Shown here: positions 30,409-33,553 of the stretch, one piece after another
Numbering within the stretch: the stretch's first letter is position 1
Layout of the letters: every line of letters starts with the position of its first letter
From: Escherichia phage vB_Eco_OMNI12
Length of the DNA stretch: 64,000 bases
Reading direction: 5' to 3' (one strand)
Sequence record: OL362041.1
The notes under the pieces: model-generated
Told to the model about the DNA's origin: nothing
The model's database searches: none
The model's input: only the letters and a program-made list of their open reading frames with translations
Program-made: the position numbers and the translations under genes

Positions 30409-30729
30409 TTATTCTTTAAATCTAATCAATTTATTCATAGACTTTGAAACTTCTGCACGAACCTCATGTAGATTTTTGAGCTGTTCAAGACGCTGCTCAT
30501 AGTAAGCAATTTCATCTTCTTCGAGACAGTCCTGTGAATCTTCTTTAAGATACCGTGCATAGTCCTGGAAAGCGTTACGGACTACTTCCTGGAAGTCATC
30601 AAGACTTTGAATTTTCTTAGGAGCAGCAGACACACGACGAGGGGCAGTATAATACTCATAACCAAACCCTGCGCTTAATTGAGCCATTAATATTTTTCCT
30701 CTGGTTGGAACACAGCACGACAAGCCCAC
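30409..30729 (-). CDS. hypothetical protein
   Basis: ORF track 106 aa. Confidence 0.4.
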
Positions 30730-30989
30730 ATACTAGCTTCTTTGAGTTTCGTTTTAGCAATAGCTAACTGATCGAGGCTTTCAGCATAATTCTTCGCGAG
30801 TTCAAAGTCTTCGCAATTATCTAGTGCTTCCCAGAATTCATCATATAAAGCATCAAAGATAAGTCCTAAACGAACTTCAGCGTCTTTAATAGCATTTACT
30901 TTACCGATTTTTTCGTCGGTATGTGGCTTATAACCTTTAATATCTTCAATCATATTTGACTTCCTCACCAGTACATAAATCGTATTCAA
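30687..30989 (-). CDS. hypothetical protein
   Basis: ORF track 100 aa. Confidence 0.4.
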
Positions 30990-31167
30990 CTAAACGAATA
31001 GGTTCATGAATGCCATATCCCTGAACAGAAATTTCTGTCGTAGGATAAATTCCACTAATATCACCCATATTCCACGCTTCATTAAATTGCTGTTCGCCTG
31101 AATTACTAAACCATTCTGCGAAAGCATTTAACACATCTTTAGAACCTTCAATAATTATCTTTGCCAT
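30946..31167 (-). CDS. hypothetical protein
   Basis: ORF track 73 aa. Confidence 0.4.
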   Translation of the reverse strand: MAKIIIEGSKDVLNAFAEWFSNSGEQQFNEAWNMGDISGIYPTTEISVQGYGIHEPIRLVEYDLCTGEEVKYD

Positions 31168-31529
31168 TACAAGCTCTCAGTAAAGGTACGAGCGATAACG
31201 TCGCGCTGCTGTTCCGGAGTCAGAGAGTTAAAGCGAACTGCATAACCGGATACACGGATGGTCAGCTGCGGATATTTTTCCGGATGCTTAACTGCATCTT
31301 CCAGAGTTTCACGACGCAGAACGTTAACGTTCAGGTGTTGACCACCTTCAATTTTAACTGTAGGCTGTTGCTCAATTTCAATTTCACGGGCATGCAAACC
31401 ATAGAAAATTTCTGGGTCTACAAAAGAGTCCTCTTTAAAGGTTTTAGAGACAATAATTCGTGCTTGAATACCATCTTCAAAATAAATAGTACCTTTATGT
31501 GTGCCTTCAAGAATTTGATATGCTTTCAT
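31167..31529 (-). CDS. autonomous glycyl-radical cofactor (GrcA/YfiD-like)
   Basis: 120 aa; C-terminal [33 protein letters not shown] glycyl-radical signature; 3' half GC-rich. Confidence 0.75.
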
Positions 31530-31535
31530 ATAACC

Positions 31536-31916
31536 TCAATTAGAAAATAATTTTATCCAAGATTGTTCTTTAATTAAAAATGGCTCAGAATCATATGCCA
31601 TTAAACTTTGAGTAATTAATCCTTTAAATGGTCCATCAATAAATTCCATGGTAAAATATGGAATTTTATTCATTAATCTTGCATTAGGAGCAGTGCACAA
31701 AACTCTGCATCCTTTGAATACACCTTTTTGTAATTTGTATTGCTTGGGATAAAATTCGCTCAAGACGTTGTTATTTGCCAAAATTTCAAAATGATTCACC
31801 AATTTATTTTTAATAGTTTTTGGCGAAAAATAAAGATATTCGAAAAGTTGCGTATCTGTCATCATTGCATTCCAATTACGAAAAACTGCGGACGAGTAAT
31901 ACCGCCAATGCAGCAT
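31536..31916 (-). CDS. hypothetical protein
   Basis: ORF track 126 aa. Confidence 0.45.
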   Translation of the reverse strand: MLHWRYYSSAVFRNWNAMMTDTQLFEYLYFSPKTIKNKLVNHFEILANNNVLSEFYPKQYKLQKGVFKGCRVLCTAPNARLMNKIPYFTMEFIDGPFKGLITQSLMAYDSEPFLIKEQSWIKLFSN

Positions 31917-32401
31917 TTACTATTGCAGCAGTGTTGCACAGTTTCAATATGAATATCGTAAATCTTATCCATATCAGGAGATTTGACAGGCTCATCAATT
32001 ATATACAAAATTCGCGAAAGCGATAAACCTCTGAACTTGCTTCCTTTATTACCAATAAAACTGCGCACAGAATCAGTAAATAAACGAAAACGTATATCAT
32101 CATTAGAATAACGCGAAAATTCCTTTTTAATATTATCTGCGGAAATTTTAGCGTAAGCTGAAGTATTAGAAAGAACAATAACTGTTCCGCCATCATACAA
32201 CCAATTAGCAGCAAAGTTAGTCACAGCAATTGATTTACCAGATTGACGCCCACCATCTAGTCGAAGTGTACAATACTGTTTAAGTAAGTCTTCAAATGGC
32301 GGGATATATTCGTTTTTACAAATTTCTTCTACTCTAGCATCAGAATGGTGTGTAAAAGCATTCATCAGGGATAGATAAGGACCAGTTAAAAATGTTCTCA
32401 T
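31862..32401 (-). CDS. P-loop NTPase, hypothetical
   Basis: Walker A GGRQSGKS, Walker B LYIIDEP; start uncertain (Met 1, 7 or 17 of ORF track). Confidence 0.45.
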   Translation of the reverse strand: MRTFLTGPYLSLMNAFTHHSDARVEEICKNEYIPPFEDLLKQYCTLRLDGGRQSGKSIAVTNFAANWLYDGGTVIVLSNTSAYAKISADNIKKEFSRYSNDDIRFRLFTDSVRSFIGNKGSKFRGLSLSRILYIIDEPVKSPDMDKIYDIHIETVQHCCNSKCCIGGITRPQFFVIGMQ

Positions 32402-32546
32402 TTTGTTCTCTCTAGGTTTGGGCCATTCCATGGCGCATGAATTGTCCATTTCTGTATTTACCCATTACCGCACTTGGGCTCGACCTTATTACAGGTTGGC
32501 GGGAATCCCTCACAGAATCATGAGGTCCAGGTTATTCCCATGTTAT

Positions 32547-32963
32547 TTAAATGTAAATATTTTTGCCGTAATACTTATACCAGTGTGGCTTCATTAAAAT
32601 TTTTTCATCGAGTCGTTGTTGACTCAACTTAATAGCTGATTTGCATGGATTATAATCATTTTTTCATTCTACTGGAATATCGCTGATGTCAGGAACTTCA
32701 GTATCTTTTATACTGAACCCGCGTTTTAAGCATTCCGTTATAATGTCCGATTGACGCTTTCGCAAAAATTCTAACTTATCGTAAAAGAAAGTAACATGAC
32801 CAGAACCTAAAATAAATTTAGAAGATATTTTAAAATCTTTAACGCGCTTACCGTTTGCCACATGCTTACGAACTATACCAAAAACACGCGGCAATTCACG
32901 GTATTCTGCGATTAAATGTTGATCAGCAAGTTCAGATACTAAAGTCAAATTAATACGAGTCAT
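32547..32963 (-). pseudogene. denV: denV (pyrimidine-dimer glycosylase, endonuclease V) interrupted by in-frame TGA
   Basis: 99-codon ORF ends at TGA (32666-32664); same frame continues 38 codons ending WYKYYGKNIYI, collinear with remembered T4 endo V (138 aa). Confidence 0.7.
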
Positions 32964-32982
32964 TTTATCCCTCCAAGTAACT

Positions 32983-33017
32983 GTGAATATACTATCACAA
33001 TTCTAGGAGAAAGTAAA
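32983..33017 (-). promoter_or_regulatory. T4-type early promoter upstream of denV
   Basis: -35 TTTACT (33012-33017), 17-nt spacer, -10 TAGTAT (32989-32994). Confidence 0.5.
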
Positions 33018-33022
33018 CAACT

Positions 33023-33553
<531 letters not shown>

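Follow-up and report, generated by a model that had tools for sequence, protein, structure and literature searches.

Why should a small gene of a T4-type phage end in a stretch of DNA that looks like that of its host? T4 is the textbook virulent phage, which shuts down and degrades the host genome, and to our knowledge its own genome is regarded as essentially without nucleotide similarity to E. coli. The locus lies in a 64,000-nt stretch of Escherichia phage vB_Eco_OMNI12 (OL362041.1), hereafter the window, by which we mean the whole stretch analysed; it is that of a T4-type phage. An initial annotation, made from the letters alone, described here a gene for a glycyl-radical cofactor whose AT-rich 5' half is diverged and whose GC-rich 3' half resembles E. 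coli grcA (yfiD), and proposed recent recombination or gene conversion with the host gene.

The gene is the ortholog of T4 vs.6. Its product shares 118 of 120 aa with the T4 vs.6 protein (NP_049730), which RefSeq labels 'autonomous glycyl radical cofactor GrcA' and which we take to be UniProt Y06I, and the ORF has the same nucleotide sequence (100%) as that of Escherichia phage EC.W14-2 (Tequatrovirus). Gene order around it is as in T4: e, denV, vs.8, vs.7, vs.6, vs.5, vs.4, vs.3, regB, vs.1. The features of the locus, from upstream to downstream, are as follows.

31536..31916, minus strand: vs.7 homologue, upstream neighbour, outside the patch (from the ORF list)
31534..31537, minus strand: GAGG, Shine-Dalgarno-like motif 5' of the vs.6 ATG, overlapping the vs.7 stop (read in the sequence; putative function)
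31167..31529, stop codon included, minus strand: vs.6/Y06I ortholog, GrcA/YfiD-like cofactor of 120 aa (ORF list, T4 protein match, Pfam)
31352..31529, minus strand: phage-type 5' part of vs.6, codons 1-59 plus one base, diverged GrcA N-terminal half, AT-rich, ~40% nucleotide identity to grcA
31177..31351, minus strand: host-derived conversion tract, GrcA residues 68-125, structured glycyl-radical domain including RVSGYAV, 175/175 nt
31167..31176, minus strand: phage-type tail G AGC TTG TAA, host and phage bases mixed, its stop overlapping the vs.5 start (TAATG)
30946..31167, minus strand: vs.5 homologue, downstream neighbour, outside the patch, its start overlapping the vs.6 stop

The product ends with the RVSGYAVRF signature that had been read in it at the outset. 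The Pfam domain Gly_radical (PF01228) is found at residues 60-101 with 67 bits (cut-off 22.2), and the RVSGYAV radical loop is present. It is a small stand-alone protein (~14 kDa) with no PFL catalytic barrel, encoded between unrelated phage ORFs. We compared it with the GrcA/YfiD autonomous glycyl-radical cofactor family (NCBIfam TIGR04365, InterPro IPR011140). Against the TIGR04365 GrcA equivalog, the vs.6 product scores 154.9 bits in an alignment spanning residues 20-120; this is below the cut-off of 170 (E. coli GrcA scores 233.9) because the N-terminal half is diverged, and the N-terminal 59 aa taken alone give no match to the model. In YfiD, residues 61-127 are structured and fold as PFL residues 693-759, and residues 1-60 are disordered (PMC8683613). 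YfiD and T4 Y06I are both activated by PFL-AE and restore O2-cleaved PFL, according to PMC8683613, which cites Wagner et al. 2001; this is consistent with the role of Y06I as a spare part for damaged PFL that the initial annotation had given. vs.6 is also listed as conserved across six T4-like genomes (PMC1524935). Judged from its sequence, the window product is predicted to be a spare C-terminal glycyl-radical domain for oxygen-cleaved host PFL, working after activation by the PFL activase.

The gene is chimeric. Between 31177 and 31351, the window is identical to E. coli grcA at 175 of 175 nt, without a break (strain SK1144). BLAST of gene nt 179-363 against grcA gives 183/185 identities (98.9%, E=7e-86), and the sole two differences fall in the last three codons (GAG/GAA and TTG/CTG). 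All 5,426 complete E. coli genomes match the patch at 98-99% (identity class 95-99%), with grcA as the best match in every one; none of the 5,426 reaches 99% to the phage segment, because of the two tail differences. At the protein level, codon-aware alignment pairs codons 61-120 with E. coli GrcA residues 68-127 and finds 60 of 60 aa identical, from EGGQH to the C-terminus, so that the initial claim of identity over the last ~60 residues is borne out exactly. The N-terminal 60 residues of the product align loosely to E. coli GrcA, as expected of the diverged homolog that this half was taken to be; relative to GrcA/YfiD, this half lacks 7 residues and has diverged strongly, and its coding sequence, the phage 5' part, is the counterpart of YfiD residues 1-60, which are disordered (domain limits from PMC8683613).

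The composition of the gene is likewise split. The segment 31167-31352 has a GC of 0.484, which places it at the 99.5th percentile of 186-nt windows; GC is 34.8% in the window overall and about 0.28-0.36 in the 5' half of vs.6. The GC-rich part had been placed at about 31167-31360; the richness is real but the limit is not, as the true 5' junction lies at 31351/31352, where identity to grcA in the codon alignment goes from ~40% to 100%. At third codon positions, the patch (GC3 0.45) is close to the corresponding segment of E. coli grcA (0.43) and above both the 5' half of vs.6 (0.20) and the phage genes next to it (0.22-0.31). Of six Leu codons in the 3' half, all but the terminal TTG are CTG, and CGT/CGC and CCG are among the patch codons. 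Thus, codon usage and composition of the patch fit the donor and not the recipient phage. Megablast of the whole 64-kb window against E. coli genomes found no match outside the vs.6 tract. Other 186-nt windows with GC of at least 0.50 lie at about 38239, 39499 and 59282 and have no E. coli match by megablast; the first two presumably lie roughly where the T4 tRNA cluster would map.

A join of this kind could come from host-read contamination or a chimeric assembly, and host DNA is known to contaminate phage preparations, although nothing specific to this locus speaks for it. The same in-frame junctions are present in ~640 independently sequenced genomes, including the T4 reference, and phage-specific tail bases follow downstream of the patch. 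We therefore give an artefact almost no credence.

Identities computed over the same 180 nt identify the donor. The phage is 98.9% identical to E. coli, 97.8% to Escherichia sp. and 92% to Citrobacter amalonaticus. E. coli itself is 93% identical to Citrobacter, 87-88% to Klebsiella/Enterobacter/Serratia and 84% to Salmonella. The donor must thus have been E. coli grcA or a sequence very close to it. The related genes pflB and tdcE are ruled out as donors, with 79.5% identity between the phage and E. coli pflB against 98.9% for grcA. The near-identity to grcA at the nucleotide level that the initial annotation had set as its test is present, and stands above both the 70-83% of native phage genes and the 84-93% found between enterobacterial genera; it supports the proposed recombination or gene conversion with host grcA, which left a diverged phage 5' half joined to a host 3' half.

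Transfer ran from host to phage, as three observations indicate: the tract is host-like in composition and codons and anomalous in the phage; the 3' half of E. coli grcA, in all 5,426 genomes, lies at the normal distances from other enterics (93% to Citrobacter, 84-88% to others); and the phage-type 5' half is found in no E. coli genome, 0 of 5,426 matching at 80% or more of the gene and no match extending over more than 51% of it. The same observations bear on the reverse transfer, in which E. coli grcA would have received its 3' half from a T-even phage. For cyanophage psbA, exchange in both directions has been suggested (PMC1484495), so that such a transfer would have a precedent, but with a host-like patch, ordinary enterobacterial distances and no phage-type sequence in any E. 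coli genome, we find it scarcely believable here.

We then compared vs.6 with its homologues in other phages. Matching phage records number 1,514. In other T-even genera and other virulent phages, the 3' halves are AT-adapted and 63-83% identical to any sampled host grcA; this group includes Karamvirus CC31-like phages, EnC07, ZX13, RB43-like phages, Slopekvirus KP15, Krischvirus JSE and RB49-like phages, and T5-like phages. Specifically, the region of the patch has a GC of 0.39-0.42 and at most 83% identity to any host in the Karamvirus CC31-like phages, EnC07 and ZX13. The native homologues (CC31/EnC07, RB49/JSE, T5-like and jumbo phages) have the architecture and radical domain of vs.6 but AT-adapted 3' halves that contain no host-identical tract (63-83% to any sampled host grcA), and they show the form of vs.6 without recent conversion.

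These homologues also bear on a quite different history, namely the ancient capture of a whole gene whose disordered N-terminal half drifted and whose radical domain was frozen by purifying selection. In favour of such a capture, the radical-domain protein is extremely conserved in all phages and hosts, and residues 20-60 of the phage N-terminal half can still be aligned to the GrcA profile. However, selection at the protein level cannot keep ~43 synonymous sites identical to the allele of one host species. RB43-like phages and KP15 have nearly the same protein, yet are 80-83% identical at the nucleotide level, and the patches of Klebsiella phages, described below, track host-specific synonymous variants. 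Ancient capture is thus very improbable, and conversion of a resident phage gene by host DNA is the reading that we retain.

Two groups of homologues deserve separate mention. In the RB43-like Karamvirus group and Slopekvirus KP15 (L014-L020), the C-terminal 60 aa are identical or nearly so to host-type GrcA, with E. coli-type LEDAVKH and, in KP15, Klebsiella-type LLDAVEH. Their nucleotide identity to hosts is 80-83% and their GC is intermediate (0.47-0.49); they may be older conversion tracts that later drifted toward phage base composition. In Morganella phage MP1 (L034, KX078569), the GrcA-like C-terminal half resembles PflB (MNREMLLEAMEDPTKYPQL...TKEQQRDVISRTFTEAM) and not GrcA, and may reflect conversion with a different host paralogue.

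The patch is present in T4 (NC_000866) and in some 640 records of Tequatrovirus and Mosigvirus. At a threshold of 95% identity, 639 phage records match the 3' half and 474 the 5' half; about 174 further records match the 5' half at 88-95%. These diverged 5' halves belong to Mosigvirus (e.g. AV114), and across the two genera the 5' halves are 88-100% identical. The T4 tract has 3 differences in 180 nt, one of which is R73H. The window inherited its patch from an ancestor common with T4; the isolate itself did not acquire it. Tequatroviruses whose isolation host was Yersinia, Salmonella or Serratia retain the E. coli patch, and an exact-pattern scan of IMG/VR found no Tequatrovirus copies beyond the five loci in our set.

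How old is the tract? In a sliding comparison of the window with AV114, identity is 55-88% in vs.7, 85-88% in the 5' half of vs.6, 97-100% in the tract and ~72% in vs.5 just past the patch end. Across 18 Tequatrovirus × Mosigvirus pairs, the 5' half has 10.5-13 synonymous differences over ~37 sites and the patch 0-6 over ~43 sites (Fisher p 1e-5 to 0.17, below 0.05 in 17 of the 18 pairs), indicating that the tract is younger than the split between the two genera. Within Tequatrovirus, synonymous differences amount to 0-5 in the patch and 0-8 in the 5' half. The patch is thus about as variable as the 5' half there, indicating that conversion is not continuous on the timescale of the genus and that the tract is mostly vertically inherited within it. 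Only when measured against T-even evolution is the tract 'recent'. The recent event of the initial annotation accordingly stands relative to T-even divergence and falls for this isolate, since T4 and the other records have the same patch. The same annotation had held that conservation of the GC-rich half across T-even orthologs would make it ancient; two genera do have this half in common, but it postdates their separation and is absent from other T-even genera.

Small differences in the patch and in the tail were also considered. Tail haplotypes differ between T4, the window, L003-L006 and Mosigvirus, with GAA/GAG, AGC/AGT and CTG/TTG/CTA as the variants among tequatroviruses. As a sign of several conversions, they were dropped as weak, each change being almost the sole synonymous option at its site. 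The E. coli tract has a single common SNP (A/G, core nt 12), for which phage L005 has the G allele; separate donors were not argued from it, one site being too little.

The distribution in the two genera could also have arisen if the patch was acquired once and then spread from phage to phage into the other E. coli-infecting genus, which would leave only the Klebsiella events as independent. Consistent with this, the 5' junctions of Tequatrovirus and Mosigvirus coincide, their tails, which begin GAG AGT, are similar, and the patch behaves as vertically inherited inside Tequatrovirus. However, directly beside the patch the two genera share only 72-88% identity, and an exchanged tract would therefore need to coincide exactly with the host-homologous 175 nt. 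In addition, RB69 is unable to recombine with T4 or other RB phages, according to PMC6024577, and Jiaodavirus shows that independent host conversions happen. We consider a single acquisition unlikely, though it deserves real weight, and favour repeated conversion from the host.

The Klebsiella/Raoultella phages of the genus Jiaodavirus provide the parallel case. In Klebsiella phage KPV15 and others of this genus, the 3' half has a GC of 0.53-0.57 within loci of ~39% GC. A metagenome scan for the Klebsiella/Salmonella-type peptide LLDAVEH... yielded 58 host-type grcA genes and 2 phage contigs. Over core nt 1-156, one of these phage contigs (L171) is identical to the commonest, Klebsiella-like host allele (21 contigs) at 156/156 nt and KPV15 at 155/156, and the last ~24 nt are phage-type. 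The sister phage contig (L167) lies 12 sites from L171 and only 2/156 from another, Raoultella-like host allele, L164. The L164 locus is 94% identical to a Raoultella MAG over ~980 nt, and Klebsiella-like metagenomic host contigs are 85-90% identical to a Klebsiella MAG over ~980 nt; at the genus level, the metagenomic host contigs are thus probably Klebsiella and Raoultella.

In a comparison of eleven Jiaodavirus copies, identity is 96-100% for the 5' halves but only 89-97% for the tracts. Of the 37 synonymous tract variants, 28 match host polymorphisms in both position and base, where ~16 are expected (hypergeometric P ~1e-6, with transition bias ignored). In several Jiaodavirus isolates, the allele is other than the one closest to the isolation host. 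Together, these comparisons point to a separate host-to-phage replacement in Jiaodavirus, of Klebsiella and Raoultella type and with different alleles in sister phages. Jiaodavirus mirrors the situation in E. coli, whose grcA is nearly monomorphic, and both agree with a 3' half that tracks the gene pool of the host. Separately, the vs.6 homologue in the KPV15 record (L028, KY000080/NC_055715) has a 1-nt deletion relative to sister phages, at ~nt 1640-1650 of the locus, that splits the ORF.

vs.6 thus has the marks of a mosaic auxiliary metabolic gene of the psbA type, with an abrupt change in identity, donor-like composition and a tract genealogy at odds with that of the gene and genome. Replacement has recurred across phage genera, and we hold it highly probable that it took place by repeated host-to-phage gene conversion, limited to the conserved glycyl-radical domain. 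The starting point would be an old AT-rich GrcA homologue resident in the phage, whose 5' half was kept and whose codons 61-118 were overwritten via homologous (homeologous) recombination with E. coli grcA DNA in the infected cell. T4 has a recombination system of its own. Native phage versions, at 75-83% identity to host grcA in the structured domain, would be similar enough for homeologous strand invasion by host fragments, and these fragments may recombine through T4 UvsX/UvsY/gp46-47. Host DNA is broken down by T4 during infection (PMC6071114).

The limits of the tract can be read in the same way. It would stop at EGGQH on the 5' side and near the stop codon on the 3' side because phage-host similarity ends there. 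The 3' limit would fall a few bases before the stop and leave a phage tail that overlaps the vs.5 start region (TAATG). The Jiaodavirus tail has GAGG 7 nt before the next ATG, and overlap of the tail with the start signals of the next gene may select against its conversion. In Mosigvirus, which also infects E. coli, the replacement would have come about separately or by spread.

Separate replacements across genera mean that this half of the gene follows the host gene pool and not the phage genealogy. Conversion is nevertheless episodic and not instantaneous, as indicated by the E. coli patch in Yersinia, Salmonella and Serratia phages and by the non-nearest alleles of Jiaodavirus. Fixation may have been neutral or selected. 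If neutral, one-way recurrent conversion would act like mutation pressure. Selection for a match to host PFL and its activase is possible; native phage variants with diverged residues persist, however, indicating that exact host matching is not required. More tentatively, and at somewhat less than even chances, recurrent one-way conversion in virulent, host-DNA-degrading T-evens may make the patch a record of recent host species, perhaps favoured by the match to PFL and activase. If true, 'Yersinia', 'Salmonella' and 'Serratia' tequatroviruses would carry an E. coli record and sister jiaodaviruses a Klebsiella- or a Raoultella-type one, and homeologous recombination between T4 and its host could be measured in a natural system.

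The protein and its function were already known, and the type of event is known from cyanophage psbA. Intragenic host-phage recombination in cyanophage psbA/psbD was reportedly described by Zeidner in 2005. The likeness to vs.6 is that a metabolic gene of T4-like phages is uneven in %G+C and contains stretches swapped with its host counterpart; the cyanophage gene also groups by host range (PMC1484495, Sullivan 2006). Unlike psbA, whose signals are statistical, bidirectional and mostly phage-to-phage, vs.6 has a sharper tract (0 mismatches in 175 nt), always in the same domain and from host to phage only, and it is found in hmC-containing virulent coliphages that destroy host DNA. We found no earlier description of the vs.6 nucleotide mosaic or of recurrent host-tracking in the literature searched, although older T4 papers may have noticed it; the mosaic is unmentioned in PMC1524935, PMC2993671, PMC6071114 and PMC8683613.

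The perfect 175-nt tract and the parallel Klebsiella/Raoultella tracts mean that host DNA does enter T-even genomes wherever similarity suffices, and make vs.6 a natural locus at which to measure the rate and genetic requirements of homeologous recombination from host to phage. Phylogenies or host predictions based on GrcA mix two histories, and the patch allele could mark the recent reservoir host of a phage lineage. The known biochemical role of the vs.6 protein is unchanged by the mosaic.

Several other features were observed near the locus and among the records compared. The minus-strand ORF of denV, the endonuclease V gene (32664-32963), ends in TGA at 32664-32666, where the near-identical EC.W14-2 has TGG (Trp100), giving 99 aa versus 138; the premature TGA is either a nonsense mutation or a sequencing error. 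At 32316-32545, covering the denV/vs.8 spacer and the 5' end of vs.8, the window, T4 and AV114 are 90-100% identical between flanks at 50-80%, with a GC of ~0.45. Rfam has no match over 30500-33000, and the fold of the denV/vs.8 spacer is not significant (z=+0.49). The window is without an 8-nt repeat unit that T4 has at this denV/vs.8 island. Only ~60 nt (32964-33022) separate lysozyme e (33023-33517) from denV, as in EC.W14-2; T4 presumably has the internal-protein genes ipII and ipIII between e and denV, which are absent in the window and EC.W14-2. Among the bacterial records, one labelled 'Vagococcus sp. WN89Y' (L112, NZ_JBQPOM010000029.1), a Firmicutes label, contains a grcA of enterobacterial type, its product being 91% identical in aa to that of E. 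coli, indicating that the assembly is probably mislabelled or contaminated. In Klebsiella sp. WOUb02, grcA lies on a 275-kb replicon labelled 'plasmid unnamed4' (L103).
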